DNA of 64,000 bases. Source: Gammaproteobacteria bacterium. GTDB lineage: Bacteria > Pseudomonadota > Gammaproteobacteria > UBA4575. Both the position numbers and the translations under genes were made by a program. How positions within the stretch are numbered: the first letter of the stretch is position 1; the number at the start of each line of letters is the position of its first letter. The DNA is taken from the NCBI GenBank assembly GCA_965207475.1, contig OZ242278.1, positions 264,320 to 328,319 on the forward strand, written 5' to 3'. The notes beneath the pieces are model-generated. The model worked only from the letters and a program-made list of their open reading frames with translations. It searched no databases and was not told the origin of the DNA. This document shows positions 2,697 through 21,647 of this stretch, in pieces.

Positions 2697-3284
2697 ATGA
2701 ACTTATCAAAACTTGCCTATCCGATTATCGCTGGGCTTTTAGTGCTTCTGATAACACCTGCTTTCGGTGACCTGGCCAAAACTGGCGATACGGCTCAAAA
2801 CCAGTCAGCTGATTGCACGGTACATCCTGTTTTCACTGATCCTGAAGCAATGGCTGCTGCAATGACTAATCCGGTCAAATTCAATGAATTGATGGTTGCG
2901 ATCAATCACCCAGCCACTACTCAAGCACTTATGAACTGCTCTATTGATCCAAAGCAATGGGAGGCCTGGATGATGAGTTTCAGCGACCCTGCCAAGTTGA
3001 CGAATGCAATGGCACAGTTCATGAACCCCCAGACATATGTTAATTGGATGGCTGCTCCCATGAACCCGCAGTCATACCAGTTTATGTATGCGTATATGAA
3101 CCCGGCATTTTATATGCAGTGGATGACTGCTCTGATGAACCCGCAGTATTACCAGCCTCTGTATAAAACTATGGACTTCAACCAAGAAGGCACTGCGTGG
3201 ATGTTTAACCCAAGCACTTATCAAAATATGTTTAGCTCTTTCTATACCCCTTCTGTAGCAGAAGCCACAGTAGACAAAAACTAA
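2697..3284 (+). CDS. Secreted Met/Tyr-rich repeat protein ((M/F)NPxxY repeats)
   Basis: Start taken at ATG 2697 (GGGGA RBS upstream), giving a Sec-type signal peptide MNLSKLAYPIIAGLLVLLITPAFG. The mature part has at least five copies of a 12-13-aa repeat: FMNPQTY..., MNPQSY..., MNPAFY..., MNPQYY..., FNPSTY. Low-complexity but clearly periodic. Confidence 0.6.
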   Translation: MNLSKLAYPIIAGLLVLLITPAFGDLAKTGDTAQNQSADCTVHPVFTDPEAMAAAMTNPVKFNELMVAINHPATTQALMNCSIDPKQWEAWMMSFSDPAKLTNAMAQFMNPQTYVNWMAAPMNPQSYQFMYAYMNPAFYMQWMTALMNPQYYQPLYKTMDFNQEGTAWMFNPSTYQNMFSSFYTPSVAEATVDKN

Positions 3285-3362
3285 TCAAGCGAAATTGTTC
3301 AGTTTCGCAGGATGCCCCAAGGTATAACTGACTCTCAGGAACTGGAGTAGAAGGTATACCCC

Positions 3363-3399
3363 AAAAAAAAGCCTCGGTTGAAAGACCGGGGCTTTTCTT
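3363..3399. terminator. Bidirectional Rho-independent terminator between convergent genes
   Basis: An A-tract (3363-3370), an 8-bp stem (gcctcggt / accggggc, with one G:U pair), loop tgaaag, then cttttctt. It sits between the convergent ORFs ending at 3284 and 3466. Confidence 0.6.
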
Positions 3400-3465
3400 A
3401 ATTCAGCTACTCTTGGACTGGACTTTTCTGCCCACACCGGTTCACAGCTGATCCTTGAATGAAGC

Positions 3466-3852
3466 TTACAATGCCAACGGGAATGCGTTCTTCGTAAATG
3501 CAACGGCCATGATGTAGGCATAGGTTATCAGTGCAAGACACCAGGCCGAGGCTCTCACTCTCCTAGATTTTCCGCGTTTTAAAGCAATGACACCCAGCAC
3601 GATATATACCAACAGCCCGATAATCTTGGCGTTCAGCCATGTAGCTGGACCAAGATACTGAACCGTGATGAACACCAACGCGATCGCAGTGAGCAACAGT
3701 ATCGTATCATTTATATGTGGAACTATTTTTACCCAGCGCTGCTGTAATCTTTCTGACGATTGCAGCATCCAGACCCCGCGAACAAAAAATCCGGCAATCG
3801 ATAGGCATGCAGTGCCTACATGGACAGCGTACAGAACAACATAGGTAGCCAT
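3466..3852 (-). CDS. SirB2/YchQ-family small inner-membrane protein
   Basis: 128 aa with four predicted TM segments. LQQRWVKIVPHINDTILLL matches the conserved SirB2 (invasion gene expression up-regulator) core. Confidence 0.55.
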   Translation of the reverse strand: MATYVVLYAVHVGTACLSIAGFFVRGVWMLQSSERLQQRWVKIVPHINDTILLLTAIALVFITVQYLGPATWLNAKIIGLLVYIVLGVIALKRGKSRRVRASAWCLALITYAYIMAVAFTKNAFPLAL

Positions 3853-4166
3853 ATCAGAATTCGCTTGAATATGCAGCCAGATAATCAGTCATTTATCAGC
3901 CTCTATCCATTTCAGTTCCGTACCCGTTTAGCAAAACTTGTAACACAGGCACAGTGCCGCCGGATCTAAGAAATTCTCATACAAGTCATCTAAAATAGCC
4001 ACTATTATCTACTGGCCTGGATAGTTTGAACTAAGCAATCAATCAGTTAGTACGTTAGAATATTCGTGAACTTACATAGTAAACTATCGTCAAAAATTAC
4101 AGTATGGCCTGTATTGGCTAGATGACAGATGTGTGCATTTCACATCACCAATCTCAAGGGGACGCC

Positions 4167-4619
4167 ATGGACATTTCGAAAAGAAGATTCATTCAATACC
4201 AGCTTTGCATAGGCATATTTGCCTTAAGTTCAGGCGTAATACCACGAGCCTGGGCAGGATGGCCGTCAGCAGCGTTTGATGAAACTGAATACTTGCCCGC
4301 GTTAAAAGGGCTAATCGGCGATCAGGAACTGCTTGATGGACACGTAGAGCTGAATGTGCCAGATATCGCTGAAAATGGCGCGACGGTGCCTGTAAAGATT
4401 TCAACAGACCTGGATAACGTCGAATGGATAAGTATCATGGGTGACAAGAATCCAAGACCTTGGATTTCAAGGTTTTATTTTCACGGAAAATCCAAGCCCT
4501 ATGTCTCTACACGCATCAAATTGCGTGAGACCTCGCATGTAGTTGCCATCATCAAGGCAGAAGGCAAATTATACAGCACGAAAAGTGCAGTGAGAGTTAC
4601 CGCGGGCGGTTGTGTCTAA
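4167..4619 (+). CDS. soxY: SoxY-like sulfur carrier protein (Tat-secreted)
   Basis: Start taken at ATG 4167 (RBS aagggga) rather than ORF start 4122. Has a twin-arginine signal SKRRFIQYQLCIGIFALS, a SoxY-like fold length, and C-terminal ...RVTAGGCV with the carrier cysteine near the C-terminus. The canonical motif is GGCGG, so this one is atypical. It is immediately followed by soxZ. Confidence 0.65.
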   Translation: MDISKRRFIQYQLCIGIFALSSGVIPRAWAGWPSAAFDETEYLPALKGLIGDQELLDGHVELNVPDIAENGATVPVKISTDLDNVEWISIMGDKNPRPWISRFYFHGKSKPYVSTRIKLRETSHVVAIIKAEGKLYSTKSAVRVTAGGCV

Positions 4620-4643
4620 ATTTCAAATTTAAGGATTGAGAGA

Positions 4644-4958
4644 ATGTCTCAAAAAATGAAAATCAGAGCCAAAGTGAAAAACGGAATAACCACAGTTAAG
4701 GCCATACTTTATCACCCCATGGAATCTGGAAGCAGGAAAGATCCTGACACTGGAGAGCTAGTTCCGGCTCACTTTATCAAAAATGTCCAGGCAGCATTAA
4801 ATGGAGAAGTGATCATCTCTGCAGAATGGGGAACAGGGATTTCGAAAAATCCCTACTGGTCATTTGAATTTGAAGGGGGCAATCCCGGGGATATTGTGAC
4901 GATCAGCTGGACTGACAATCTTGGAGAATCAGGTACAGGAGAAGCGGAGATCAAGTAA
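4644..4958 (+). CDS. soxZ: SoxZ sulfur-compound chelating protein
   Basis: 104 aa with the SoxZ pattern K-x-LI/LY-H-P-MESG-x-RKD...NG...NPY..FEF. RBS AAGGA lies 8 nt upstream. Confidence 0.7.
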   Translation: MSQKMKIRAKVKNGITTVKAILYHPMESGSRKDPDTGELVPAHFIKNVQAALNGEVIISAEWGTGISKNPYWSFEFEGGNPGDIVTISWTDNLGESGTGEAEIK

Positions 4959-4979
4959 GGCCGAAAAGCTGGCAATGGA

Positions 4980-6125
4980 TTAGGTTGCCTGTTTCTTCCA
5001 CGGCCTGAGCAGTTCCAGCAATGACGTGGCCAATGCAGTAAAGAATCCTTTCTCATCCAAGATGTGGTACTGAACTTTCATTGTAAGCGCACTGCCAAAA
5101 ATAATTGAACCCAGGGCAAGAATTGACCCCATCGCCAATGTAGACATTCCAGTCACCCCCTGCCCTATCGTGCACCCGAATGAAAGCACGCCACCGAACC
5201 CCATCAAAACTGCGCCAATCAAATGGCTGGTCATCTCAGACTTGTTGCTGAATGTTTCAATCCTGAATGACCTTGATACAAGGGCATAGAGAAAGGAACC
5301 AGTAATCATCCCAAACGCAATCGCTATGCCAAAATTGATCTGAGCGCCTGTAAAAGTCATGAGATAGCTGATTGCATTTCCTGTTGGACCGATAAAGGCC
5401 ATGCCCTGGGGCATGACCGGTTCAAAGTCATCCTGGCCTACATAGCCGGTTACATACCATGCCGCAACCACGCATACGCCGATTATGACCCCTGCAAGAA
5501 TATTGTCGAAACTTCTGCGGAATTCCTTGTGTATAAAGGCATAGGTTATGAAACCTCCAGCCAGTACTACACCGATGATTACCCTCAGCCAAGCTGTATC
5601 CTCGAGGTTCAGAAGCGATCCCAGGTAGCTGATCAGGCTTTGGTCGTTTATGCCCTGGTTCGTAAGATCAGCATTGACAGCATAAATCCAGTTCAAACGC
5701 ACGATCGCCAACAGGCCTCGCATGGTCATATAGGCGGTTATGCCCAGCACTATAATCACGACGAGTGCCTTTAAGTTTCCACCACCGAGTCGAATTAAAT
5801 TCCGTTGCCCACAGCCTGCCGCCAATGTCATGCCAATTCCAAATAGAATTCCTCCAAGGATATAGCTGAGGATGTAAAAATTAGGTGAGAGATAGATTGA
5901 CGCATTCAGGTCCACGAGTCCCTGGAAAAACAAGAACTGTGCCCCAAGTATTGCTACACCAATTGCCAGGAACCAGGCTCCTAAACGGCCTTTTGACCCC
6001 ATGTTGATCACGTCACTGATCGCACCCATTGAACAAAAGTGAGTTTTGTTTCCAATAAAGCCAAATACAGCGGCTATGATGAAGCCAAGTATTGCTACCA
6101 GATGAAGGTTAGAAAATTCTTCCAT
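4980..6125 (-). CDS. yeeE: YeeE/YedE family thiosulfate-uptake protein (TsuA-like)
   Basis: 381 aa polytopic membrane protein. It has the two sulfur-transport-domain signature cysteines in AAGCGQRN and SFGCTIGQG. RBS aggaacgaggtg lies upstream of ATG 6125. Confidence 0.75.
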   Translation of the reverse strand: MEEFSNLHLVAILGFIIAAVFGFIGNKTHFCSMGAISDVINMGSKGRLGAWFLAIGVAILGAQFLFFQGLVDLNASIYLSPNFYILSYILGGILFGIGMTLAAGCGQRNLIRLGGGNLKALVVIIVLGITAYMTMRGLLAIVRLNWIYAVNADLTNQGINDQSLISYLGSLLNLEDTAWLRVIIGVVLAGGFITYAFIHKEFRRSFDNILAGVIIGVCVVAAWYVTGYVGQDDFEPVMPQGMAFIGPTGNAISYLMTFTGAQINFGIAIAFGMITGSFLYALVSRSFRIETFSNKSEMTSHLIGAVLMGFGGVLSFGCTIGQGVTGMSTLAMGSILALGSIIFGSALTMKVQYHILDEKGFFTALATSLLELLRPWKKQAT

Positions 6126-6440
6126 GTCACCTCGTTCCTACGGGATCAGGGGGCTAAATTATACAATGTAGATAACTTAAATTCACCAGAATGCCAATCC
6201 ATATAGCGAGCAATTATATCCCTGAATATTTTTGAATTTTCAGAATTGAAAGTACATGAGAAATATATCCTAAGGCCTGAATATCTCTTGAGTAATTTGA
6301 AAGCAGAAGAGCATTTCGAGTGTCTGCCTGCGTAGATTAAGGTTCTTCAAAAAGATTTTACAATAGTGTTCGTAACACCGCATGCCCATCCCAAATGCAA
6401 GTTCGCATATCTGTTGGGATGAGCACACCAGGTAATGTTA

Positions 6441-7121
6441 TTACTCAGTCTTGGACCCAGAATTAGGAAGGAAATTTTTCATCATGTCTGTCCATTGATC
6501 GTACCACTGCTTATGCTGTTCAGTATCCATTTGCGGGCTTCCGGGAGACTGCGGTGATTGTCCTCCATAGCTAGGCATTGGGGGCATCATACCCATAGGG
6601 TTCATCATCGGATTTCCCATCATGGGATTCATCATGTTCATGTACATTGCAGGATTCATCATGGATCCCATCATCGGTCCCATCATCGGTCCCATCATTC
6701 CCATCATCGGATACATCATGTTCATGTACATCGCAGGATTCATCATCCCGCCAAAGGAACCCATATAGGTATTTGGATTCATTATGGAAGTCATCGCGTG
6801 AGGATTCATCATTGCCTTGTAGGGTTGCCACATCATATCCAGCATAGGCCCGAAGCTGGCATGGTACTCAGCTATATCCTGGGGTTCATGACATAGCGCG
6901 CAAGCATCTAGAGACGATGAATTTTGAGGGTTCATCATGATCGCCATCATCTGCATCCATACGTTGGGGTCCATGGAGTGTTGCATTGCCTTCGACGTGC
7001 CTAATGGAGCAGGATCTGCTTGCGGGGTTGGTGTTTCCTCAGCATGTAAGCCGATGACGCAAGCAGTAAGTAGGCAACTAGCAATCAATACCCATCGAAG
7101 CAGTCTATTATTAAATAACAT
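6441..7121 (-). CDS. Secreted, extremely methionine-rich protein with a CxxCH haem-binding motif
   Basis: Signal peptide MLFNNRLLRWVLIASCLLTAC. The mature part is roughly one-quarter Met, with at least seven MMNP repeats and MGPMMGPMMG tracts. A single CALCH (CxxCH) motif is followed by a Met-rich block. RBS AGAAGGGAA lies upstream of ATG 7121. Confidence 0.6.
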   Translation of the reverse strand: MLFNNRLLRWVLIASCLLTACVIGLHAEETPTPQADPAPLGTSKAMQHSMDPNVWMQMMAIMMNPQNSSSLDACALCHEPQDIAEYHASFGPMLDMMWQPYKAMMNPHAMTSIMNPNTYMGSFGGMMNPAMYMNMMYPMMGMMGPMMGPMMGSMMNPAMYMNMMNPMMGNPMMNPMGMMPPMPSYGGQSPQSPGSPQMDTEQHKQWYDQWTDMMKNFLPNSGSKTE

Positions 7122-7160
7122 TTAAATTCCCTTCTGGTTAATAGGTTTACAAACGTATTC

Positions 7161-8258
7161 TCAAAACTCGCCTGTTGCAGCGCCTTCCATAATGTAAGTC
7201 ATTGCCTCGCGAATTCTGATCGCATCCTGACGCAAATCTTTAGCCAAATGCGAGTTCGGATTTTGAGCAAAATCAAGCCATTCGATACTCCAGTCCATGG
7301 TCATGACCCACAGCTTGCCCTCACCATCCTCAATCAATGAAATCTGGCACGGCAGGAATATAACAAATTCTGGAATTTCGTCTAAGATTTTTCGAGCAAC
7401 TGCCGCATCACAGAAACGAAACATCTCGACCTTGGCAGAAGGTTTTTCCGTGACTGCTTCAATTTCTTTCCACAGTGGGCTCGAACCAACAAACTTGAAG
7501 TTCAGCTCATTCGCACGGAGCTTCATGGCCTCCACAGCATCATCCCAGGAGACGTCTTCCTGAACAGGCATCTTGTCAGTCATGATACTGATCATGTCAC
7601 GCATGGAAAGCGGACTGAAGGCCATCGCAGTTTGAAAGGCATTCTTCTTGGCTTCACGGGACACTCCGGGAGATACCTTGTTTTTCGGCCAGTTTTGATA
7701 ATTCTGGGTCGGGAAAAACGGGATTCTTACAGCCGGTAAATGCTCTGGAACTTTGCCTCCCCTGTAAGCAGAACCCGCATGGCCGAACATACCAAACAAA
7801 AGATGTGGATTCATCGAGCGCATCATCATGTCCATGGCCCATGGTTGCGTCATCATGTCCACAGGAAAGTTATACATGGTCCTCATCATTCCCATCATCG
7901 GATACATCATGCCCATGTAGGCTGCAGGGTTTAGCATAGTGAAGGGGTTAAAGAAGTTCGCAAATGAACCATGTGCCCCCGTCCATGGGTTATGCACCGA
8001 TTGAGAAGGTGCCTGCTTTGCTATTCCTTCATTAATACTGGCCCGTGAGTCTTCGGTGGACTCTGGGTTAGTATCTGTATTTGTTTTCCCGCTTGGTTCT
8101 TGACTGTCATCCATCTTTACAACAGTCTCGGTCTGGACAGAATTCTCTGCGTTGTTTTGACTAGAAAGTTCTGAACTTATTGAGGTCGTGGGCAAGACTA
8201 GTATCCCAGCCATCAAGACAACGAGCGTCCGAGTCACTTCAGCATACTTCATAAGCAT
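7161..8258 (-). CDS. Secreted protein: Met-rich repeat region fused to a C-terminal DUF302-like domain
   Basis: N-terminal signal peptide, then an S/T/N/E-rich linker. The Met-rich block (MLNPAAYMGMMYPMMGMMRTMY...MDMMMRSMNP) is homologous to the two other Met-rich proteins. The C-terminal roughly 130 aa (VSWDDAVEAMKLRANELNF...PCQISLIEDGEGKLWVM...) resembles DUF302 (PF03625). That domain call is from memory, not from a search. Confidence 0.5.
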   Translation of the reverse strand: MLMKYAEVTRTLVVLMAGILVLPTTSISSELSSQNNAENSVQTETVVKMDDSQEPSGKTNTDTNPESTEDSRASINEGIAKQAPSQSVHNPWTGAHGSFANFFNPFTMLNPAAYMGMMYPMMGMMRTMYNFPVDMMTQPWAMDMMMRSMNPHLLFGMFGHAGSAYRGGKVPEHLPAVRIPFFPTQNYQNWPKNKVSPGVSREAKKNAFQTAMAFSPLSMRDMISIMTDKMPVQEDVSWDDAVEAMKLRANELNFKFVGSSPLWKEIEAVTEKPSAKVEMFRFCDAAVARKILDEIPEFVIFLPCQISLIEDGEGKLWVMTMDWSIEWLDFAQNPNSHLAKDLRQDAIRIREAMTYIMEGAATGEF

Positions 8259-8335: not shown

Positions 8336-8896
8336 TTGCAATCAGACAACTCACAGAGGTATCTTTTGAAACTTTTACTTGCCGCCGCCCTGCTGATCAT
8401 CGGTGCAGTCTCCATGGCTGTATCCTCTGTCACATTAGAGGCTACCAACAGCACGGACTTCTGCACATCGTGCCATTCCATGCAGTGGGTACAGGAAGAA
8501 TGGATGGAAAGCATCCACTATACAAATATCTCGGGTGTACGTGCCGGCTGTTCTGACTGCCATGTTCCGCACAGCCTGGGGCCAAAGCTGTATGCCAAGA
8601 TTCGCGCCGCAAAGGATGTATGGCACGAGATCCTGGGCACCATAGATGATGAAGAAAAATTTGAAAAGCACCGGTGGCAGATGGCAAATGCCGTATGGAC
8701 ACGAATGAAAGCAAATGACTCGCGTGAGTGTCAGTCATGCCACACCATTGCTGCCATGGATCTCAAGGAACAGGACCGCTCAGCACGCAAAAAACACAAA
8801 AATGCAGAGACGCGCGGAAAAACCTGCATTGATTGCCATACTGGTGTGGCACATACACTGCCCAGAAAACCTGCAGAGGAAATTGCACTGAACTAG
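8336..8896 (+). CDS. NapC/NirT/CymA-family membrane-anchored tetrahaem cytochrome c
   Basis: Four CxxCH motifs (CTSCH, CSDCH, CQSCH, CIDCH) after one N-terminal TM helix. Length and spacing are typical of NapC/NirT quinol dehydrogenases. An alternative TTG start at 8364 follows the GAGGT RBS. Confidence 0.8.
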   Translation: MQSDNSQRYLLKLLLAAALLIIGAVSMAVSSVTLEATNSTDFCTSCHSMQWVQEEWMESIHYTNISGVRAGCSDCHVPHSLGPKLYAKIRAAKDVWHEILGTIDDEEKFEKHRWQMANAVWTRMKANDSRECQSCHTIAAMDLKEQDRSARKKHKNAETRGKTCIDCHTGVAHTLPRKPAEEIALN

Positions 8897-9033
8897 GCAA
8901 GGCGCGGGTCTAAAAGCGGCCATTCAACTGTGCTAGTATTCGTGTGCGGGGATAAAAATCACTGCAGTTGTGCTTAGATTCTAGCCGTTTGCAGAATAAC
9001 GAAGCCATGAATATCCAGTACAGGAGGATAAGA

Positions 9034-9699
9034 ATGCTGTTAACAATTGTCCGCCATACATTTTTGTTATGTGTGCTCAGTCTGCTGACTTTCCATACCG
9101 TATCAGCATCCGACCTTGCAAGCCCGGCTATGCTATCTGACACATGTCTTGGCTGCCATGGTCCAGCAGGTATCAGCGAGGGGCCAGCGACCCCGACCAT
9201 TTCGGGAATGTCAGAAATTTACATAATTGGCGCAATGTTGGCCTACAAGTACGATAACGACGAGGATAAGGTTGAGGAAGTGATTGAATCGGATCCTGAC
9301 TTCGAGGACGTCGAATTCTTTGCCCGAACGTCCACTGTCATGGACCGAATTGCCAAAGGTTATTCCGAAGCAGAAATCAAGGCTATCGCAAAGTACTTTG
9401 CAGCATTGCCTTTTAAGGCCAGTGTGCAGGAGGTCAACCCTGAACTGGCCAAGGCCGGTGCAGAAATCCACGAACATCACTGTGAAAAATGCCACGAGGA
9501 TGGCGGAAGGTCTGCGGATGATGATGCAGGAGTACTGGCGGGACAGTGGATTCCTTACCTTGAATATACAATGGCTGATTTTCAAAGCGGCGATCGGGCC
9601 ATGCCTAAAAAAATGAGGAAGCAGATGGAAGAAGCCCATGACGTGCATGGAGAGGAATCAATTGCCAAACTCATCCAGTTTTATGCAGATCAGGAATAA
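9034..9699 (+). CDS. fccA: Flavocytochrome c sulfide dehydrogenase, dihaem cytochrome subunit
   Basis: I started it at ATG 9034 (AGGAGG at 9022-9027) rather than ORF start 8968. It has a signal peptide and two CxxCH motifs (CLGCH, CEKCH), and is immediately followed by the flavoprotein subunit with a slight overlap. Confidence 0.75.
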
Positions 9700-9730
9700 A
9701 GCGCCAGTCAGGATTGCAGGAGGAACTAAC

Positions 9731-11014
9731 ATGCCAAATCTAAATAGAAGGAAATTTTTACAGAGTACAGGTAGCGCATTTGCACTGGGCTCCACCGTAC
9801 TCGGTTTTCCGCATATAGCGGGGGCTGCAAAAAAACGTGTCGTCGTAATTGGCGGTGGTGTAGGCGGATCGATCGCTGCCAAATATATTGCCAAAGGAGA
9901 TTCTTCCATAGAGGTAACCATTGTTGAAGCAAAACCCAGTCACCATACATGCTTCATGAGTAATGAGGTAATTGGAGGTGATCGAGATATTTCAACAATC
10001 GAGTTTGGCTACGACAAGTTTGCGAGCCACGGAATAAAAGTAGTTCAGGACAAGGCTACTGCGGTTGACCCCGTTGCCCACAAGGTTACCACTGCAGGTG
10101 GTGTAACGCTTGAGTATGACCGTCTGGTAATGTCACCGGGCATTGCGCTCCAGTGGGAAACGATTGAAGGCTACGATGAGGCTGCTGCTGAAATCATGCC
10201 CCATGCCTGGCTAGCAGGACAGCAGACTGCACTGCTGAGAAAACAGCTGGAATCGATGGATGACGGTGGACTGGTGGTCATTGCCCCTCCAGGCAATCCG
10301 TTCCGTTGCCCGCCGGGCCCTTATGAGCGCGCCGCACAGATTGCTCATCATCTCAAGCATCACAAACCGAAATCCAAGGTTTTGATACTTGATGCCAAAG
10401 ACAAGTTCTCCAAACAGGGATTGTTCATGCAGGGTTACAAGAAAGTCTACGGGGACATGATCGAGTGGGTTCCAGGGGCGGATACAGGTGGAGGCGTCAC
10501 CTCGGTAGATCCCAAGGCGATGAAAGTCAGCACTGATTTTGATGAACATAAAGTTGCTGTAGCCAATATCATCCCACCGCAAAAAGCGGCACAAATTGCC
10601 CATGATGCAGATCTGACGGATGATTCTGGCTGGTGCCCTGTAGACTTGGGGACATTCGAGTCCAAGCGGCACAAGGACATACACGTCATCGGCGATGCCG
10701 GGATCATTACGGGTATGCCCAAGTCCGGTTTTGCTGCGGGCACCGAGGCGAAAGTGGTTGCTTCAGCAGTCGTCAGCATGCTTCAGGAAAAGGAGTCCGG
10801 CGTTAATTCCTATGCCAATGCATGCTACAGCATCATCGCACCAGACTACGGAATTTCTGTGGTTGCTGTGTACAAGCTTGCCGCAGACCGTTCGAAAATC
10901 GAAAAGATGAGTGGCGGGCTTACTCCTGCTGATGCAACTCCGGAAGCGCTTAAACGTGAAGTGCAATATGCCTACAGCTGGTTCAAAAATATGACGGCTG
11001 AAATGTTTGGTTAA
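9731..11014 (+). CDS. fccB: Flavocytochrome c sulfide dehydrogenase, FAD-binding subunit
   Basis: Start ATG 9731 (AGGAGG RBS) gives a Tat signal [16 protein letters not shown]. It has a Rossmann dinucleotide-binding motif [16 protein letters not shown], and its length and pattern match the FccB/SoxF flavoprotein family. Confidence 0.85.
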
Positions 11015-11091: not shown

Positions 11092-11610
11092 TTATTCGAT
11101 AAGCGGCACCTTGTAGACAAGGGTCCCGATCGCCCCATCGTTGCCCTTGAAGTTTGCATGGCACATCACACACCTCTCGAGAACGACCGGGACGGCCGTG
11201 GCCTTACGCAGATAGCGCATGCCTTCAATGGTGACTACCTCTTCATGCGTAGACTCGCCACCTAGCAGCTTTTCTTTAGCCTGCTCTTCGAATTCATCTT
11301 TCGGTCGATTCATCTCAGGATGGATGAGAACATCCGTCAGGCCTACAAGGCGCACCTCGTGATAGCCGTTGTTACTCATGGTGTCAAACAACGCTTTCGC
11401 AGCGCTTGCCCCCGAAAACTTCGACGGATCAGTGACGTATTTGTCCGTGATCAGCACTATCGCTGTCTTGTACAGGGTGTCAAGCATCTCTACATGCTGG
11501 CGCGTTCTTGTGACTTCAGGATCTTCATCTGCCATGGAGGCTTCACTGAACAAAGCCAGCGGCATGCAGACAGGAACTAGCCAGGCAAGAAGGCTTTTTC
11601 GCTTTCTCAT
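11092..11610 (-). CDS. Periplasmic c-type haem (CxxCH) protein, DUF3365-like sensor-domain fold
   Basis: 172 aa with a signal peptide and a single C-terminal CVMCH motif. Its size and C-terminal haem position resemble DUF3365 (Tll0287-like) proteins. That domain assignment is from memory. Confidence 0.45.
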   Translation of the reverse strand: MRKRKSLLAWLVPVCMPLALFSEASMADEDPEVTRTRQHVEMLDTLYKTAIVLITDKYVTDPSKFSGASAAKALFDTMSNNGYHEVRLVGLTDVLIHPEMNRPKDEFEEQAKEKLLGGESTHEEVVTIEGMRYLRKATAVPVVLERCVMCHANFKGNDGAIGTLVYKVPLIE

Positions 11611-12296: not shown

Positions 12297-12923
12297 CTAG
12301 ACAAACAGGCAGATATTCGCGTCCTTGGCAGCTGAAAGAAAGGAGGCTGCACCGACCCACTCTGATACTTCATCGATAAACTCGGCCTTGTCATACCCGA
12401 ATAAGTCCGCTGTCATCTCACAGCCAATAATTTTTACTTCAGCTTCGATGGATAAGGCACGCAACTCCTGGATACTTGCGACACCTTTCTCCTTGATAGT
12501 CCGCTCCATCATCAAGGTGGCAAATTTTTCAAATCCCGGGAGGTTACTGCTCAGTGCATTGGGTATATTCCATTCCACACTTTTGAACCAGTCGGGGCCA
12601 AACGGCATTTTCATTGGCATCGCAGGATTGCCCAGCGGCGAAACAGCAAGGTTCAAATCTTTCTTCAGAAGGTTCAGTCCGTAAAAAGTAAAGAAGCAGG
12701 ATACATCCCAGCCCAGAGCTGCAGCAGTCGACGCAAGAATAAAGGGAGGGTACGCCATGTCCAATGTGCCCTTGGTGGCAATCAGTGACAACTGGGGGGT
12801 CCTGGCTTCTGCACGCTCGCGCAGCCTTTGCTCCAGCCTTTCGTCGAACCAATTGTTCAGTGCTTCCTGGTCAAGCTGTGACGGGACCTGGGATTCGGAT
12901 TCGGGTGTACTTTCTTGCTGCAT
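12297..12923 (-). CDS. DsrE/DsrF-like family protein (sulfur-relay-like), with an N-terminal Q/E-rich extension
   Basis: The core LSLIATKGTLDMAYPPFILASTAAALGWDVSCFFTFYG is characteristic of the DsrE/DsrF-like (COG2210-type) family, with a candidate active cysteine in SCFF. Confidence 0.6.
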   Translation of the reverse strand: MQQESTPESESQVPSQLDQEALNNWFDERLEQRLRERAEARTPQLSLIATKGTLDMAYPPFILASTAAALGWDVSCFFTFYGLNLLKKDLNLAVSPLGNPAMPMKMPFGPDWFKSVEWNIPNALSSNLPGFEKFATLMMERTIKEKGVASIQELRALSIEAEVKIIGCEMTADLFGYDKAEFIDEVSEWVGAASFLSAAKDANICLFV

Positions 12924-13117: not shown

Positions 13118-13193
13118 TGGCGTCCCCAGGGGGATTCGAACCCCCGTTGCCGCCGTGAAAGGGCGATGTCCTAGGCCTCTAGACGATGGGGAC
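13118..13193 (-). tRNA. tRNA-Glu (anticodon UUC)
   Basis: The reverse complement reads GTCCCCATCGTCTAGAGGCCTAGGACATCGCCCTTTCACGGCGGCAACGGGGGTTCGAATCCCCCTGGGGACGCCA. That is 76 nt with a full cloverleaf, anticodon loop CUUUCAC, and an encoded CCA. Confidence 0.9.
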
Positions 13194-13710
13194 AGACGAA
13201 TGTTCCTGCATTAACCAGCTATACCTGCATCAGAAGCGGCGCAAGGTACGCTAACCCAGCTTTTGCGTCAAGTACTACGGCATCGGGCAGCACTTGATAT
13301 GGCTAGGCACTACTGAAAAGTAGCTCTAACCATCTGATATATTAGTATCAGTACACTACCAGATAATCCAGTTGCCCCCAATGTTGCCCCAGATACTGCG
13401 ATGGCCGGATCCAAATTCTTAAAGCGCTGTTATCTATAGTTATTTTTAATTTTTACGGATGTTGTCAAAAGTAAATCTGTTCCTTAGACAGTGCCAAGCC
13501 GAGACATGGTTAGGGAAAATAGACTTGCAGATCTGTCCATCTACCCAGGAACCCCTCTCCTCAAGGAATCTCTGTTTTTATTCCGATAGTGCCACGACTG
13601 CGGTTGTACCTATAAGAAACACAGGTGCGTCGCCAAGCGCAGATCACGAAGGGACACCTGATCGTGAAATGTATAATACGCTGGCACTTTGATGCATAAA
13701 GGAGTTCCGT

Positions 13711-14670
13711 ATGCCTATCCGTGATTACCAGTCGCTCATGCTTCCAGTCCTCAAGGCACTCGCCGACGGGCTCGAAGCCCCGCTGTCCAAAATACGAGCC
13801 CATGTTGCTGTTTCGGAAAAGCTGACTGAGCAAGAACTCTCCCAACGGGTGCCAAGTGGGCAGCAGACGGTCTTGAACAATCGCGTCAGTTGGGCGCTGC
13901 ATCGCTTGGAAAAGGCGGAACTGGTCGGGCGGTCGCGCCGCGGAGTATATCAACTGACAACTGAGGGGGACCGGTTGCTGAAGGAGGAACCGGAGAAAGT
14001 AAATAACGTTTTTCTTCGTACTCATTATTCAGCGTATGCAGAGTGGTTGCGTTTGTATGAACAGCGGTATAGGCAGCGACAGAAACGTGAGGGCACATCG
14101 CAGACTGCGCCAGCACAGCTTCGAGTGCCTGATTCCGAAGAGACGCCCGAGGAGCAACTGGGACGTGCCGCTCGGGAACTGCGCATTGCGCTGGAGTCTG
14201 AAATACTGAGTCTTGTCCGCAGTGCCCCTCCCGAATTCCTTGAGCACGTAATCGTCGATCTGCTGGTGTCGATGGGCTATGGTGGCGGTGATGCGGCCAA
14301 GAGCCGTGTGACAGGACGTTCGGGAGATGGCGGTATCGACGGCACAATCCGGGAAGACGCACTCGGTCTGGACGAGGTCTATGTTCAGGCCAAGAAATAC
14401 GCCGAAGGCAGCAACGTTGGCGAAGGTGACTTGCGCAACTTTGCAGGTGCCATTGACGCAGCAGGCACATCCAAGGGCGTATTCGTTACCACAGCTGGAT
14501 TCACGCGATCTGCGCGAGATTACATCGCACGCAGTCCAAAGCGAATCATTCTAATTGATGGCGAAGAATTGGCCCGACTTATGGTCCAGCACGATGTAGG
14601 CGTGCGGACACGCGACCGCTACGAGATCAAGCGGGTTGACGAAGACTATTTTGATCAGGAAGAGCTGTAG
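13711..14670 (+). CDS. mrr: Mrr-family type IV restriction endonuclease (Mrr_N winged-helix + Mrr_cat)
   Basis: Has an N-terminal Mrr_N-like domain and a C-terminal catalytic core (...GDGGIDGTIREDALGLDEVYVQAKKY...) with the PD-(D/E)XK-type D...(E/Q)xK arrangement typical of Mrr_cat. GGAG RBS lies upstream. Confidence 0.7.
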   Translation: MPIRDYQSLMLPVLKALADGLEAPLSKIRAHVAVSEKLTEQELSQRVPSGQQTVLNNRVSWALHRLEKAELVGRSRRGVYQLTTEGDRLLKEEPEKVNNVFLRTHYSAYAEWLRLYEQRYRQRQKREGTSQTAPAQLRVPDSEETPEEQLGRAARELRIALESEILSLVRSAPPEFLEHVIVDLLVSMGYGGGDAAKSRVTGRSGDGGIDGTIREDALGLDEVYVQAKKYAEGSNVGEGDLRNFAGAIDAAGTSKGVFVTTAGFTRSARDYIARSPKRIILIDGEELARLMVQHDVGVRTRDRYEIKRVDEDYFDQEEL

Positions 14671-14673
14671 TTC

Positions 14674-17478
14674 ATGCGCCTTTCGTGGAACGAGGTTCGA
14701 GTTCGTGCTGCAACTTTTGCCAAGGAGTGGCAGGATGCATTTTATGAGAAAGGCGAAGCACAAAGTTTCTACAACGATTTTTTTGAGATCTTTGGAGTTC
14801 GGCGACGAAGCGTTGCCCGCTACGAAGAGCATGTAAAGAAACTGGACGACACTTCCGGCTTCATTGACCTGTTCTGGCCGGGGGTTCTCATTGTCGAGCA
14901 GAAGAGTGCAGGACGTGACCTCACCAAGGCAGGCGACCAAGCTAGAGAATACTTTGATGCCCTGAAAGAAAGTGATCGGCCACAGTATATCTTGGTAAGC
15001 GACTTCCAGACCTTCGAACTCCATGATCTCGATGAGCGAAAGCAAGTAAATTTCAAACTCGCAGAGCTGCCCGCGCATGTCGAGTCGTTTGGCTTCATCC
15101 TCGGCGTACAGCGCCGCACCTTCCGCGATCAGGATCCGGCCAACATCAAGGCAGCGGAACTGGTCGGGCGGTTGCATGATGCCCTGGCCGCAACAGGCTA
15201 CCAAGGCCACTACCTGGAACGCTTTCTGGTGCGAATCGTCTTCTGCCTGTTTGCCGATGACACGGGCATTTTCGAGCCACGTGACATTTTCCTCGATTTC
15301 ATCCAGGCACGCACGAGCGAGGATGGGGCTGATCTCGGGCCGTGGCTGGCCCAATTGTTCCAGGTGATGGATACAACGGAAGATGCCCGCACGGCAACGC
15401 TGGATGAAGACCTTGCGCGGTTTCCCTATGTCAACGGTGACTTGTTCCATGGGCGACTAGACATTCCATCTTTTGACTCAGCCATGCGCAAATTGCTGCT
15501 GGATGCTTGCCGCTTTGACTGGTCGAATATTTCACCTGCAATCTTTGGGGCGTTGTTCCAGTCAGTAATGAATCCGGAGGAACGCCGTGCCCAGGGTGCG
15601 CACTATACGACCGAGAAGAACATCCTCAAGGTGATTGAGCCACTGTTTATGGACGACCTGCGCACCGAGTTCAAACGGCTAAAGTCTCGCAAGGACAGTC
15701 GGCGCCAAGCTGAGCTTCAACGATTTCAGAAAAAACTCGGCAGTTTGACGTTTTTTGACCCGGCCTGTGGTTGTGGCAACTTCCTTATCATCGCCTATCG
15801 GGAATTGCGTGAACTTGAGATTGAGGTCCTGAAGGAAATTCACAAAAAGTTCCTAGTTCGCATGAGCCGTCTGAAGGGCGGTTCCAGCCTTCCCTCAGAT
15901 CAACTTTCCTGCATCGATGTTAATCAGTTCTATGGGATTGAGTTAGGTGAATTCCCATCCCGAATCGCAGAAACCTCGCTGTGGATGATGGACCACATCA
16001 TGAACAACCGGCTAAGCCTGGAGTTTGGTCAGTCCTATGCGCGTATCCCGCTTGCAAAGTCGCCGCATATTGTCCACGGCGATGCGCTTGAAACGGACTG
16101 GTCCGAGTTGTTACCGGCGAAGGATTGCTCCTTCGTCTTCGGCAATCCGCCATTCAAAGGTGCAAAGTTCCAGACAGCGAACCAGCGCGCGCAGGTACGT
16201 AGGATCGCGGCACTCGGCAGGAGTGGCGGCACGCTCGATTATGTCTGTGCATGGTTCATCAAGGCAGGTGAGTATGTACAGGACAGCGATGCCCGAATCG
16301 GCTTCGTCGCGACCAACTCGATCACAGCAGGCGAGCAAGTAGCTCAACTCTGGCCGATCCTATTCGAGCGCTGCAAGCTGGAGATCGCATTCGCGCATCG
16401 CACATTCGCATGGGGATCGGATGCGCGTGGTAAGGCCCATGTGCATGTGGTGATTCTCGGTCTCGATCGAAGGGAGGCAGTGCAACCTAAGAAGCGCCTG
16501 TTCAGCTATCCCGACATCAACGGTGAGCCAGAGGAGACCCGCCATGTGGCGCTTTCTCCGTATCTGTTCGATGCCAGCGGGCTATCGGACCCGCATCTGG
16601 TGGTGCGGGAGGAGAGCGCGCCGATCAACGGAATGGGAAGATTGATAATAGGCTCCAAGCCAATCGACGGCGGAAATTACATTTTCGACGAAGCGGAACG
16701 CACTGCGTTTCTTGAAGCAGGGCCCGAGGCTGAGCAGTGGCTTCGACCGTTCATTGGAGCACGTGAGTATTTGCACGGTGGCGAACGGTGGATTCTTGCG
16801 CTACATGACACGCCGCCCGACGTGTTGGGGCGGTTGCCGCATGTACGAGAACGTATTGCAGCTGTACGGACATATCGTGAGGAAAGTAAAAGCAAGCCGA
16901 CTCAGAAACTTGCAAAAACACCAACGCTCTATCATGTGAATATTATTCCTGATGCACCGTTTCTTGTTATCCCCGAAGTCAGTTCGGAACGTCGTGAGTA
17001 CGCGCCTATCGGGTGGCTGGAGCCACCCGTAATCCCAAGCAATCTAGTCCGCGTTTTGGAAAATGCGACCTTGTCAGATTTTGCGTTGCTGACCTCAGCC
17101 ATGCACATGGCGTGGCTACGTCATATCGGTGGACGGCTGGAGAGCCGCTACCGCTATTCCATCGGTCTCGTCTACAACACCTTTCCGCTGCCGCCCAAGA
17201 ACTTGGACCTGTCAAAGCTGGACCCACTAGCACAAGCCGTGCTTGATGCCCGTGCAACTCATCCGAATGCCACGCTTGCAGATCTCTATGATCCTGACTC
17301 GATGCCTCCTAATCTCCGTAAGGCACACTACGCACTTGACCGTGCGGTGGACCAGCTCTATCGACATAAGGGGTTTGCTTCCGAACGCGAACGGGTCGAG
17401 CACCTGTTCATGCTATATGAGAAAATACAAGCGCCGCTAAAACCTATAACTAGGAAAAGAAGACCCCGAAAGCGATGA
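14674..17478 (+). CDS. MmeI-family type IIL restriction-modification enzyme (N-terminal PD-(D/E)XK endonuclease fused to gamma-class N6-adenine DNA methyltransferase and TRD)
   Basis: 934 aa. The N-terminal FIDLFWPGVLIVEQK is a D...ExK nuclease motif. Methyltransferase motif I is FFDPACGCGNFLI and motif IV is GNPPF. The domain order and the length (MmeI is about 919 aa) fit the MmeI family. It starts 3 nt after the mrr stop. Confidence 0.6.
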   Translation: MRLSWNEVRVRAATFAKEWQDAFYEKGEAQSFYNDFFEIFGVRRRSVARYEEHVKKLDDTSGFIDLFWPGVLIVEQKSAGRDLTKAGDQAREYFDALKESDRPQYILVSDFQTFELHDLDERKQVNFKLAELPAHVESFGFILGVQRRTFRDQDPANIKAAELVGRLHDALAATGYQGHYLERFLVRIVFCLFADDTGIFEPRDIFLDFIQARTSEDGADLGPWLAQLFQVMDTTEDARTATLDEDLARFPYVNGDLFHGRLDIPSFDSAMRKLLLDACRFDWSNISPAIFGALFQSVMNPEERRAQGAHYTTEKNILKVIEPLFMDDLRTEFKRLKSRKDSRRQAELQRFQKKLGSLTFFDPACGCGNFLIIAYRELRELEIEVLKEIHKKFLVRMSRLKGGSSLPSDQLSCIDVNQFYGIELGEFPSRIAETSLWMMDHIMNNRLSLEFGQSYARIPLAKSPHIVHGDALETDWSELLPAKDCSFVFGNPPFKGAKFQTANQRAQVRRIAALGRSGGTLDYVCAWFIKAGEYVQDSDARIGFVATNSITAGEQVAQLWPILFERCKLEIAFAHRTFAWGSDARGKAHVHVVILGLDRREAVQPKKRLFSYPDINGEPEETRHVALSPYLFDASGLSDPHLVVREESAPINGMGRLIIGSKPIDGGNYIFDEAERTAFLEAGPEAEQWLRPFIGAREYLHGGERWILALHDTPPDVLGRLPHVRERIAAVRTYREESKSKPTQKLAKTPTLYHVNIIPDAPFLVIPEVSSERREYAPIGWLEPPVIPSNLVRVLENATLSDFALLTSAMHMAWLRHIGGRLESRYRYSIGLVYNTFPLPPKNLDLSKLDPLAQAVLDARATHPNATLADLYDPDSMPPNLRKAHYALDRAVDQLYRHKGFASERERVEHLFMLYEKIQAPLKPITRKRRPRKR

Positions 17479-18299
17479 ATGAGTTTCTGTTCACGTCAAT
17501 CGTCCAACGCCAAAGGTGCTCAACTGACAGAGTAGACCCACGTCCAAATCTGCACAATGCTGTTCATATGAAACACGCACCGCATGGTCTTGCACGAGCT
17601 GTGCCGGTAGGCGCTAGTGCGGGCGAACAGAGAGCTACCGCCATGTTTGTGCTCCTGTTGCTAATTCTCGCTATGACTACAGCAGCACAAGCGAGCAAAC
17701 GTCTGCAGACCGTGACGTGTGGTCTGCCACAGCAGGACAACTCAATTCCCGATCTCTTTCCTACGGGGCTACACCGACCCTTTGCCGGACGATTCACTTA
17801 GCGGGCACATGGAGGTGAAGACCTTTAACCGCCTCCATCCCGAGAGTGGTATCAGCACCGAAATGTGGATGCTCTCACGCAATGTTGGCTGGTGGAGGCT
17901 GAAAATGATCCGGGTGCACCCGGATGATTTGTCAAAGCTTTCTGCCAAATCATCGACTCTCCTTTCCTGTCACGATCCGTTGTCATACGTGGAGGGGACA
18001 CAGACGAGGAAGAGTTAGTGACCAGGCAGATCTTGGCCCTGCTGCCGGACGTCTCCCAACTGCGGTGCTTCCCGCAATCGGAAAGATAGAAAATCACTCG
18101 TGAAGGTCCATTGACGGTGCATCACAAGCGGTTGGAACTGCGTTGCCTATTACCCGCCATTGCCGCAACGACAAATCTGCTGAACTTTATCTCCACAGGT
18201 CTCGGTGTTGTACGGCAACAAGACCCATTTGCGAGCGAAGAATTTAGTAGAGCATTTGGGTTAGCTAATCTGAGAATACAGTGATTTGAGTCCTTTCCC

Positions 18300-18800
18300 C
18301 TAATAACCAAAATGATCTTGGTCTAAGGAAAATTCAAAACATGGCCCTTTGTAAACGGCACCTGTAGTGCTTATACACCTAGGATGAAGCCGTAACTTTC
18401 TAGATTTTTGAACAGTTGTTGACCTTGGCCGGTGAAGAGAATTCAACAGACTGGAAAGTTTCTCAGCAGGCACGTACCAAACCTTTACTTCACCAATTTC
18501 CAAAACCTCAGGAAGAGAAGGATGCGTACGCCCAAGTGGTGCTTCAGGAGCAACCGAGGCCCCATAATCACCACAGAACATAAGCCGAATATCAGCAATA
18601 GATACTGTACTTTCACCCTCATTTATAGCAGTAATTTTTACTGCTGGTTCTGTGAGCCCTAATTCTTTAGAAACAGGGCCTGGTTCAATCATGGTCTCAA
18701 TACGAACTGTTTTCCGTGCAACACGCTTCCGTATCTTGCTGAGAAATGCAGAAAGTCTCAGAACTAAGTCTATATTGCTGAGTGTCTCTAGAAATCCCAT
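18300..18800 (-). CDS. Hypothetical protein (166 aa) in a low-GC pocket of the island
   Basis: It is the only sizeable ORF in 17.5-20.0 kb. Its GC (about 42%) is well below the surrounding island (about 55-62%), and I see no recognisable motif. The coding call is uncertain. Confidence 0.35.
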   Translation of the reverse strand: MGFLETLSNIDLVLRLSAFLSKIRKRVARKTVRIETMIEPGPVSKELGLTEPAVKITAINEGESTVSIADIRLMFCGDYGASVAPEAPLGRTHPSLPEVLEIGEVKVWYVPAEKLSSLLNSLHRPRSTTVQKSRKLRLHPRCISTTGAVYKGPCFEFSLDQDHFGY

Positions 18801-19204
18801 TCTTTGTGAGTATTCCCTTTCGCAATTAAATTAAGTGGTTCAGCTGCGTCACTACAAATTGTATTACAAACGATCACCTTGCGTTTAGGGGTTTTTTGGT
18901 TTTGACCACCCTATTCCACAAGTTGTAAGACCTTTATTTTTCAGTCTGTGGCCATCAAATTTGAAATCAATTAATCGAACGCTTTAGGTTACTGCTGTCA
19001 CAGATGTAGCTGGCCCAGTTACTCGAGCGCACTACCAACCGTTTGCACTACAGCCGGAGTTATCCGAGTGATATGCGGAAGCAGGCATTGCAAGCCTACT
19101 ACCGCAAGATCGGTTGGCTCATTATGGTAATGCGATCTCAGAGAAGTTTGTCAGCAACTGCATGCTAGGAGCAACTACGAGACGAGCTGGATTCTTATAC
19201 ACCC

Positions 19205-19262
19205 GGCCGTGTCACTACCCGGTGAAGCGAAGCAAAACGCGGTAGTGACGCGGCCGCTTTTG
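19205..19262 (+). terminator. Long perfect-stem hairpin followed by a T-run (terminator-like or RNA structural element)
   Basis: cggccgtgtcactacc (19205-19220) pairs with ggtagtgacgcggccg (19241-19256) as a 16-bp stem with one mismatch, around a 20-nt loop, followed by ctttt. No protein-coding gene lies immediately upstream on this strand. Confidence 0.35.
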
Positions 19263-20053: not shown

Positions 20054-20302
20054 ATGAACTATCGAATTGTACGGCTGAAGGAGGTCCAGCAAATGACCGG
20101 ACTCTCCCGATCCACGATTTACGCACTCATTGCCCAAGGCAATTTCCCCAAACAGATCCAGCTCACCGAAAGCGGCCGATCCGTGGGCTGGCATGAACAG
20201 GCGGTAATCCGATGGATCGAGACCCGGCAGCAGGTGGAATGCCCGACCGGCCGCTACTCAGTCGTTGGCGGCCCTAGAGAAGAGCGAGATCACCTCGCCT
20301 GA
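20054..20302 (+). CDS. alpA: AlpA-family phage/island transcriptional regulator (excisionase-like HTH)
   Basis: Start ATG 20054 with GAGGAA RBS. LKEVQQMTGLSRSTIYALIAQGNFPKQIQL is the canonical AlpA/MerR-like HTH. The 3' end overlaps the integrase 3' end convergently. Confidence 0.7.
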   Translation: MNYRIVRLKEVQQMTGLSRSTIYALIAQGNFPKQIQLTESGRSVGWHEQAVIRWIETRQQVECPTGRYSVVGGPREERDHLA

Positions 20303-21484: not shown

Positions 21485-21647
21485 GGGGGCAACTCCCTTT
21501 ACAAATGGTACACTTGCCCCCGATTCTGCCCCCAGTTGCCCCCGGATGTCAATAAACTTCAGTGAACTGCTTTGGACACTGTTAAGCTATAAATATCTTA
21601 TTTATCAAATGGATAAAGACGTTATGGGACATTCTAAGATTTTGAAA

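Follow-up and report, generated by a model that had tools for sequence, protein, structure and literature searches.

Methionine-rich secreted proteins encoded with a YeeE-like channel in uncultured Gammaproteobacteria: candidate accessory proteins of a sulfur import module

How does sulfane sulfur held in the periplasm reach its oxidation in the cytoplasm? This route is a gap in the field. The YeeE-like SoxT1A of Hyphomicrobium denitrificans, which takes up sulfur to be oxidized in the cytoplasm (Li et al. 2024, PMC11582611), is the only importer shown, and the import step is otherwise unresolved (Tanabe et al. 2024, PMC11094781). The question is raised anew by a stretch of 64,000 nucleotides, hereafter the window, from Gammaproteobacteria bacterium (UBA4575; assembly GCA_965207475.1, contig OZ242278.1, positions 264,320 to 328,319, forward strand). 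A sequence-only reading of this DNA had pointed to three secreted, methionine-rich proteins, here named A, B, and C, as the periplasmic part of an undescribed module in sulfur oxidizers. We found that the genes of C and B are conserved together with a gene for a YeeE-like channel; all three proteins are thus good candidates for a periplasmic step in which sulfur, stored or bound to a carrier, is passed into the cell. The features on which this account rests are as follows.

2697..3284, plus strand: protein A, secreted, 195 residues, about 8 to 11 tandem 13-residue units, no Pfam or NCBIfam match
4980..6125, minus strand: YeeE/YedE-family (SoxT-like) membrane channel (PF04143, E 1.3e-62), last gene of the C-B-yeeE unit
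6441..7121, minus strand: protein B, secreted, 226 residues, with a helical CxxCH core, a disordered methionine-rich insertion, and a conserved C-terminal helix
6582..6824, minus strand: methionine-rich low-complexity insertion of B (residues ~100-180), 39.5% methionine
6888..6902, minus strand: CxxCH motif of B (C74-A-L-C77-H78), presumed heme c attachment site
7161..8258, minus strand: protein C, 365 residues, first gene of the unit, 39 nucleotides upstream of B
7293..7436, minus strand: DUF302 domain of C (PF03625; residues 275-322), E 2.2e-9, 37.5 bits against a cutoff of 23
7809..7961, minus strand: methionine-rich tract of C (residues ~100-150; FNPFTMLNPAAYMGMMYPMMGMMRTMYNFPVDMM...), a module of the type also seen in B
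12297..12923, minus strand: DsrE2 sulfur-carrier protein (NF047629, 210.3 bits against a cutoff of 210)

All three open reading frames (ORFs) lie where the sequence-only reading had placed them, on the strands it gave, and each begins with a Sec-type signal sequence. By inspection, cleavage falls at ...ITPAFG/DL in A, ...GLHA/EE in B, and ...TSISS/EL in C. Methionine (Met) makes up 9.7, 20.8, and 8.8% of A, B, and C, respectively, as compared to a background of 2.6% in the 46 long ORFs of the window, and the three repeat strings originally quoted all occur in the proteins. Thus, the description of the proteins as secreted, Met-rich, and repetitive holds, while the figure of about 25% Met proposed for B was slightly high, as the mature protein contains 23.1% (10.5% in the case of mature A). 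The ATG of A is nested within a longer TTG-start ORF that begins at 2667. Such a composition might be a by-product of ATG/CAT-rich repeats in untranslated ORFs, and there are indeed short DNA repeats within the Met-rich tract as well as mirror-image ORFs on the opposite strand. One of the latter, a 112-residue His-rich ORF (HHRSHHRSHH...) at 6558-6896 (+), runs antisense to B; because it mirrors the ATG codons, read as CAT, it is an artifact and not a gene. Similarly, "IIGFIMP" ORFs lie opposite Met-rich tracts in many loci. However, the ratio of nonsynonymous to synonymous substitution rates (dN/dS), calculated against the related locus L001, which is 88-94% identical to the window locus, comes to 0.18, 0.19, and 0.12 for A, B, and C, respectively, indicating purifying selection; the comparison genes for YeeE and SoxY gave 0.05-0.06. 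Furthermore, orthologs of A, B, and C are retained in more than 20 loci, many lineages share the signal peptides, the motifs, and the flanking domains at identities of 21-60%, and the gene order is conserved as well. Thus, A, B, and C are real genes that encode genuine Sec-exported periplasmic proteins, and the compositional explanation, which had been named as one that could overturn the original claim, is refuted for practical purposes.

To define which genes travel together, we compared gene order by tblastn of the window proteins against 22 related loci from metagenome-assembled genomes of uncultured Gammaproteobacteria, the recorded taxon of the relatives being uncultured Gammaproteobacteria/Thiotrichales. 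In the window and in all 21 loci in which the region is present, including L024, the next gene upstream of B is C, and the gaps between the two genes span a few tens of nucleotides. The YeeE-like gene follows B in 18 loci, and DsrE2 is encoded close by in most. Between B and yeeE there are zero to four further Met-rich paralogs, some with and some without CxxCH, some N-terminally membrane-anchored, so that a locus may hold up to 5-6 Met-rich paralogs. In the window, the DsrE2 gene lies 6 kb from those of the channel, B, and C, whereas in clade 2 (L006, L008, L014/L023, L015, L017, and L024) it belongs to the same operon, which reads dsrE2-C-B-yeeE on one strand with dsrE2 as the first gene. 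In L023 and L024, this four-gene cluster is found among tol-pal/queCE housekeeping genes, flanked by queC on one side and unrelated genes on the other, and neither sox nor fcc genes directly adjoin it; in clade 2 generally, soxYZ is 3-4 kb off or absent from the locus. Thus, as the clade 2 order shows, the conserved unit is C-B-yeeE, often extended by dsrE2, and not sox/fcc. The sequence-only reading had linked the proteins to soxYZ, yeeE, and fccAB; yeeE belongs to the conserved unit, while sox and fcc are not adjacent in one clade, and we rejected fccAB and napC as core members because they are missing at the locus in clade 2. The wider proposal of a periplasmic part of an undescribed module is borne out by the linkage conserved across the related loci.

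The association extends in part to distant relatives. Short B proteins (130-170 residues, 21-39% identity, no Met-rich insertion) have a DUF302 neighbor in four of six loci (L025, L026, L029, and L030) and a YeeE neighbor in two (L026 and L029). In L026, a 5.2-Mb genome, soxXYZAB, tusA, dsrE2, and an ArsR-type regulator are followed by genes for an MNP-repeat protein, short B, DUF302, and YeeE. In L029, short B is divergent from DUF302, a Met-rich protein, and YeeE, while in L025 and L030 it adjoins DUF302 and MNP-repeat proteins. The Met loads of C and B show a weak correlation (Spearman 0.43, p 0.046, without correction for phylogeny). Together, these data make it likely that the proteins belong functionally to a YeeE-centered sulfur module.

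The channel itself aligns over its full length (residues 14-345) with YeeE of Spirochaeta thermophila (6LEO). All three channel-lining Cys of the solved YeeE, C22, C91, and C293 of 6LEO, are aligned with Cys in the window protein. On the NCBIfam models for TsuA, however, the protein scores 105 bits against a cutoff of 400. Because it falls so far below these cutoffs, we regard it as a member of the family and not as an equivalog of the assimilatory thiosulfate transporter. The soxYZ genes converge on the channel gene in the window, and the same arrangement is seen in most related loci.

Protein C consists of a signal sequence, an acidic Ser/Thr-rich linker, the Met-rich tract, and a conserved C-terminal domain of ~230 residues. 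Its Met is concentrated in about 50 residues: only at positions ~100-150 are there 7-8 Met per 20 residues. The search for homologs returned 334 hits. They open with a signal or anchor sequence, continue with an acidic linker (0-250 residues), and carry a Met-rich tract along with the conserved domain; the C protein of L023 reaches 22% Met over its entire length. The ~230-residue C-terminal regions of the homologs are 60-75% identical and contain two invariant Cys, in FRFCD and FLPC. The DUF302 domain, a feature not seen in the original reading of the window, was matched by all 30 of the homologs aligned (alignment A3). In a weak alignment with TT1751 (1J3M; E 0.83, C-terminal half), FRFCDA...FLPC of C is paired with ACNP...LLPC. 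The profile of C returned only low-complexity noise when compared with PDB sequences. A promoter-like site is located upstream of C at 8326-8297. As judged from its sequence, C is a DUF302 protein of the periplasm that may be anchored and that has an invariant pair of Cys. A separate observation concerns L025, a locus of the same kind, where positions 5335-5826 encode an LTXXQ/CpxP-like periplasmic protein (weak Pfam hits) with a Met-rich N terminus, MFGQPMMQPGMMQPMMPGMM. In that locus, Met-rich tracts have thus been added to a third unrelated fold.

Protein B carries the second feature that had not been noted before, a CxxCH motif. The family layout comprises a signal peptide, a helical core, a Met-rich tract of very variable length, and a C-terminal helix. 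The core follows the consensus M-x-K-S-M-D-P-x-V-W...M-M-N-P...C-A-x-C-H-x-x-E-D-x-A-R-Y...G-P-M, and the helix reads MDxxQ[YH]xQW[FY]xQWT.MMKNF (family form M-M-D-P-K-Q-Y-E-Q-W-F-x-Q-W-T-E-M-M-K-N-F). CxxCH is nearly invariant in an alignment of 24 close homologs (alignment A1). Across 25 members, down to 21% identity, the C, C, and H of this motif are the only invariant columns besides the initiator Met. Accordingly, His is not almost absent, as had been stated: B has six, one of them within CxxCH. In the AlphaFold2 model, residues 41-115 are helical with a predicted local distance difference test score (pLDDT) of 77-88, residues 136-197 fall below 50, and a further helix spans 200-217; the Met-rich tract is thus predicted to be disordered. 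Only 109 B-family clusters emerged when 1.84 billion representative proteins were searched exhaustively with HMMER. The names of homologs in the sources are "hypothetical protein," "DUF302 domain-containing protein," and, for two B-family members labeled by the Joint Genome Institute, "cytochrome c553." The neighboring genes encode other c-type cytochromes, which indicates that the heme-attachment system is present. Because the His of CxxCH is invariant and the neighborhood points to c-type cytochrome maturation, B is on balance predicted to bind heme, as a small c-type heme protein.

The Met-rich insertion is a separate matter. Many B members are short (130-170 residues) and consist of the core and the C-terminal helix without it, and its absence from these distant members identifies it as a lineage-specific expansion. 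The DNA of the insertion contains a 12-nucleotide tandem array coding for (GPMM)n and a 49-nucleotide direct repeat of 94% identity, and the length of B differs even among close relatives (226 residues here as compared to 253 in L001, 27 residues longer). Thus, in this lineage B acquired a disordered insertion of 70-90 residues with ~40% Met. Pro residues in B recur every 4-13 positions.

Protein A is the one built of regular repeats. Its unit reads x-M-[ND]-P-x-x-[YFW]-x-x-[WM]-M, and eight consecutive units keep a strict period of 13 residues, with [ND]P at positions 58, 71, 84, 97, 110, 123, 135, and 148. The sequence-only reading had described MNP-type repeats in all three proteins. When each protein was shuffled 5000 times, the motif [ND]Pxx[YFWM] was clearly enriched in A (eight copies as compared to a shuffle mean of 0.47; 0/5000 shuffles reached eight) and in B (six copies, mean 0.94; 0/5000 reached six), but not in C, whose two copies are not significant (436/5000). 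The search for the A family gave 19 hits. Their alignment (A2, 19 sequences) contains two invariant Cys, C40 and C81, and about eleven [ND]P-initiated units. A profile-profile comparison (hhalign) aligned residues 57-83 of A with 50-76 of B over 27 columns at a probability of 88.6%, pairing the invariant C81 of A with the first Cys of the B CxxCH motif. This suggests, from sequence profiles and short of proof, that A and B have a common ancestry, and the view of A as a more distant paralog of B and C, in which the 13-residue unit [ND]Pxx[YFW]xx[WM]M is repeated, is partly supported. B and C have the tract MNPAxYMxMMYPMMGMM in common, as the notion of one family of three would have it; that A, B, and C are a single homologous family is only partly supported, as the similarity of B and C may be compositional and that of A and B covers only 27 columns.

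The A gene is monocistronic and adjoins soxYZ, and its orthologs do the same in L001, L002, L005, L011, L018, L019, and L020. Between A and soxY lies a gene for a SirB-family membrane protein (3466-3852, minus strand; PF04247, E 6.7e-40), which occupies the same position in L001 and is absent from the other loci examined. Elsewhere in Gammaproteobacteria we observed secreted proteins with a 9-residue FMNPxxYxx repeat, in up to ~13 copies and with up to 27% Met. They are encoded at 3708-4334 and 4544-5221 of L025, 9263-9934 of L026, 1458-2210 and 3779-4690 of L029, and 319-981 of L030, where they adjoin short B, DUF302, and YeeE, and they form a broader undescribed repeat family related to A.

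That the repeat is not a described family had been part of the original claim, and it has stood. A, B, and the N-terminal part of C matched no Pfam or NCBIfam model even at E <= 10, the profile of B compared with PDB sequences gave no significant match and only low-complexity noise, and the full-text literature searched contained no description of the A or B families or of the Met-rich tract. A characterized family with the same repeat would have undone the claim; none was found for A, B, or the tract. A megablast of the region against plasmids returned no match. A, with its [ND]Pxx[YFW] repeat, and B, with its CxxCH motif, are thus two undescribed and unannotated protein families.

Around these genes, the sulfur-oxidation setting proposed for the locus was confirmed by Pfam and NCBIfam for SoxY, SoxZ, the YeeE-like channel, the NapC/NirT-like cytochrome, FccAB, and DsrE2. 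The neighbors not yet listed are as follows.

4122..4619, plus strand: soxY, periplasmic sulfur carrier (PF13501, E 4e-29; TIGR04488, 131.6 bits against a cutoff of 125), with the C-terminal GGC motif ...TAGGCV
4644..4958, plus strand: soxZ (PF08770, E 6.5e-34; TIGR04490, 126 bits against a cutoff of 76)
8336..8896, plus strand: NapC/NirT-family tetraheme cytochrome (PF03264, E 2.5e-66; four CxxCH), divergent from C, clade 1 context only
8968..11014, plus strand: fccA-fccB, cytochrome and flavoprotein subunits of flavocytochrome c sulfide dehydrogenase (PF00034/PF13442; PF21706 and PF09242), clade 1 context only

The three Met-rich genes had been placed upstream of napC and fccAB. They are neighbors of these genes; however, B and C are divergently transcribed and not on the same strand. 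The gene for the NapC/NirT-type tetraheme quinol dehydrogenase lies directly upstream of fccAB, and this pairing, which is kept in clade 1 loci, suggests a link of flavocytochrome c or of B to the quinone pool. Between fccB and an Rrf2 regulator, 11092-11610 (minus strand) encodes a secreted 172-residue protein with a CVMCH heme motif. Its ortholog in L001 gave a weak Tll0287-like (PF11845) hit, while the window protein gave no NCBIfam hit; these features suggest a putative heme-based sensor.

Taken together, the account that we favor has B and C serve as accessory proteins, on the periplasmic side, of a SoxT-like module that imports sulfane sulfur, and we put its probability at roughly 45%. 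Zero-valent sulfur would arise in the periplasm on SoxYZ, as part of a truncated Sox system, through FccAB, or from stored sulfur. The Met/aromatic-rich tracts may capture it, as flexible thioether and hydrophobic surfaces would suit S8 or long polysulfanes. The heme of B and/or the cysteines of DUF302 could then process the captured sulfur, which would be presented to the YeeE-like channel with the three Cys that line its pore. DsrE2 would be the likely cytoplasmic acceptor for cytoplasmic oxidation. Such a scheme presumes that B and C interact physically, that sulfur is their ligand, and that transport runs inward. A bolder version, which we consider doubtful, would make B, C, and the MNP-repeat paralogs a new class of periplasmic zero-valent-sulfur handlers whose disordered Met/aromatic-rich tracts form a thioether-rich phase that dissolves or binds S8 and polysulfane; they would cleave it in a heme/Cys-dependent manner, and pass it into the YeeE-like channel and on to DsrE2.

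Several points weigh against this account. Cu(I)/Ag(I) binding is the classical role of Met-rich tracts, and metal binding by those described here is conceivable; that they bind sulfur we infer purely from composition and context, which is indirect evidence as to the ligand. The core of B matched no known class of cytochrome c by profile or fold, and by analogy with the DsbA/SoxS partners of SoxT its CxxCH could instead be a redox-active dithiol. The AlphaFold2 model of C, built from a 30-sequence alignment, reached a pLDDT of 48 and was not used for a fold search. Neither DUF302 nor YeeE was found near short B in two of the six distant loci (L027 and L028, on short or low-coverage contigs). 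Last, SoxT transporters are not universal for sulfur import according to the Dahl group (PMC11582611).

The sequence-only reading had offered three roles, namely, soft-metal sequestration, a sulfur-globule or polysulfide-associated coat, and a redox buffer. An association with sulfur or polysulfide best fits the genomic context, although as a hand-over or import module and not necessarily as a coat. If A, the MNP-repeat paralogs, and perhaps B enveloped periplasmic sulfur deposits, in the manner of SgpA-D of Allochromatium, the link to YeeE would reflect shared regulation. Export by Sec, hydrophobicity, repetitiveness, and regular prolines, with the 13-residue Pro period of A, recall these sulfur-globule proteins (Sgps); A is also monocistronic like the sgp genes and adjoins soxYZ, and the number of paralogs differs between lineages, as expected of structural proteins. 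Yet an invariant CxxCH motif and a Met-rich tract fused to a DUF302 domain would be unexpected in a purely structural coat, as would the tight operonic coupling to a transporter and DsrE2, given that the known Sgps are described as forming separate transcription units. We therefore regard a coat by itself as unlikely; it is nevertheless compatible with the import account, since a coat could double as a delivery interface.

Still less probable is that the Met-rich tracts sequester or chaperone Cu(I)/Ag(I) in a sulfidic periplasm, for example, protecting or supplying periplasmic enzymes. Their MxxM, MxM, and MM runs and aromatics do resemble Mets motifs, which are found in Ctr1, CueO, CopA/PcoA, and CusF. 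L025 encodes the LTXXQ/"Metal_resist"-like protein with a Met-rich N terminus (weak Pfam hit), and a distant B homolog in L028 is positioned after a resistance-nodulation-division (RND) efflux operon. The proteins, however, matched no profile of a copper-binding family (CusF, CopC/PcoC, PcoE/SilE, CopK, and DUF305/CopM) even at E <= 10. Genes of copper/silver homeostasis, among them cop, cus, pco, sil, and those for P-type ATPases, are missing from the window and from the annotated loci L001, L002, L023, L024, and L026, and the conserved neighbors all handle sulfur. Moreover, because minimal B members without the tract keep the same neighbors, the function of the B core appears to be independent of the tract, and the soft-metal role has neither genomic nor profile support here. 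A sacrificial Met redox buffer that scavenges periplasmic oxidants like MrpX of perchlorate reducers, or a redox-switchable Met-rich condensate, is the least probable of the three. MrpX, in which Met oxidation scavenges oxidants, sets a precedent as a periplasmic Met-rich peptide, and disorder is predicted for the tracts described here, whose Met content reaches 40%. That system, however, is encoded with the repair enzyme MsrP/YedYZ and an extracytoplasmic function (ECF) sigma/anti-sigma pair, whereas neither the window nor any annotated related locus contains a molybdopterin MsrP-type gene, the methionine sulfoxide reductase partner of the known case. A redox buffer would also leave the CxxCH motif, DUF302, and the linkage to YeeE/DsrE2 unexplained.

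Elsewhere in the window, a genomic island at 13118-21723 lies between genes for tRNA-Glu (13118-13193, minus strand) and tRNA-Ala (21648-21723, minus strand). It carries an Mrr-like restriction protein (13711-14670), a 934-residue methyltransferase-like ORF (14674-17478), and a tyrosine integrase (20258-21484). In the syntenic locus L001, the interval from DsrE2 to gltX is shorter, is without the Mrr-like, methyltransferase-like, and integrase genes, and has only three small unrelated ORFs. A tmRNA gene at 34642-34995 (plus strand), with the tag peptide ANDDNYALAA, is ordinary.

The locus thus defines a compact, widely conserved set from uncultured marine and sediment Gammaproteobacteria, in which a DUF302 protein and a small CxxCH protein are joined by a YeeE-like channel and DsrE2 and, in some cases, by MNP-repeat proteins; this set renders the import question testable with a few recombinant proteins. 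DUF302, uncharacterized and recurrent in sox clusters, gains a concrete set of partners, and tracts of up to 40% Met in secreted proteins are an unusual lineage-specific expansion. If the proteins did form a class of zero-valent-sulfur handlers, this would provide the long-sought entry route for periplasmically stored sulfur in gammaproteobacterial sulfur oxidizers and a first function for DUF302.

Several known systems can be compared with the one described here. MrpX (PMC5358917) is a Met-rich periplasmic peptide of perchlorate reducers, and A, B, and C are likewise Met-rich periplasmic polypeptides. They are, however, of greater size and include a conserved folded core, CxxCH, and DUF302, and no MsrPQ or ECF-sigma partner genes accompany them. 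The periplasmic Cu(I)/Ag(I) binders CusF, CopC/PcoC, and PcoE/SilE and the inserts of CueO/CopA show similarly dense MxxM/MxM thioether motifs, sometimes with aromatics. The window proteins differ from them in having no profile similarity, no His-Met pairing, no copper-homeostasis neighbors, and a repeat unit of the form [MF][ND]Pxx[YFW]. SgpA-D of Allochromatium vinosum, compared here by description only, are exported by Sec, hydrophobic, and repetitive, their prolines are regularly spaced, and their genes form separate transcription units (PMC10386293). They share with our proteins the export, the hydrophobic and repetitive sequence, the proline spacing, and the periplasm of a sulfur oxidizer, but have not been described as Met-rich, heme motif-bearing, or operonic with a transporter.

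The relation to DUF302 proteins is one of domain and setting. Genes for such proteins lie inside the sox clusters of Acidithiobacillia (PMC5037610) and beside YeeE/YedE in the sox clusters of Sulfitobacter (PMC11034169), in both cases with no function assigned. C reaches the gathering score of the family (PF03625; TT1751, 1J3M) and has the same association with sox and YeeE/YedE. It differs in its long N-terminal extension, made of the linker and the Met-rich tract, and in ~100 extra conserved residues before the Pfam core. Because the family is without an assigned function, membership gives no mechanism. The TsuA(YeeE)-TsuB(YeeD) system of Escherichia coli and Spirochaeta thermophila (6LEO and 8J4C) belongs to the same transporter family, with full-length alignment and the three essential Cys. 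Unlike TsuA, the window protein falls far below the cutoffs and has no adjacent YeeD/TusA-like gene in the window; TsuA itself has no periplasmic partners and serves assimilation, not dissimilatory oxidation.

The SoxT modules share the overall plan, and three tiers have been proposed for them: a periplasmic CxxC redox protein that frees sulfur from SoxYZ, a channel, and a cytoplasmic sulfurtransferase (PMC11582611). As in the SoxT1A/SoxT1B modules, which serve sulfur import and signaling in H. denitrificans, a YeeE/YedE channel with three pore Cys stands beside sox genes, a periplasmic Cys-motif protein is encoded directly alongside, a cytoplasmic sulfurtransferase gene is nearby, and the organism has SoxYZ and cytoplasmic carriers. 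The periplasmic partners of SoxT are thioredoxin-fold proteins of the DsbA-like/SoxS kind, whereas here they are DUF302 and CxxCH proteins with Met-rich tracts. The candidate acceptor is DsrE2 instead of the Rhd442/TusA of H. denitrificans, and the hosts are uncultured Gammaproteobacteria. Thus, the YeeE/SoxT type of import module is already known, what is new here are the protein families and their Met-rich expansion, and by this analogy the module is best read as a variant of the YeeE/SoxT sulfur-import type that was shown experimentally in 2024.

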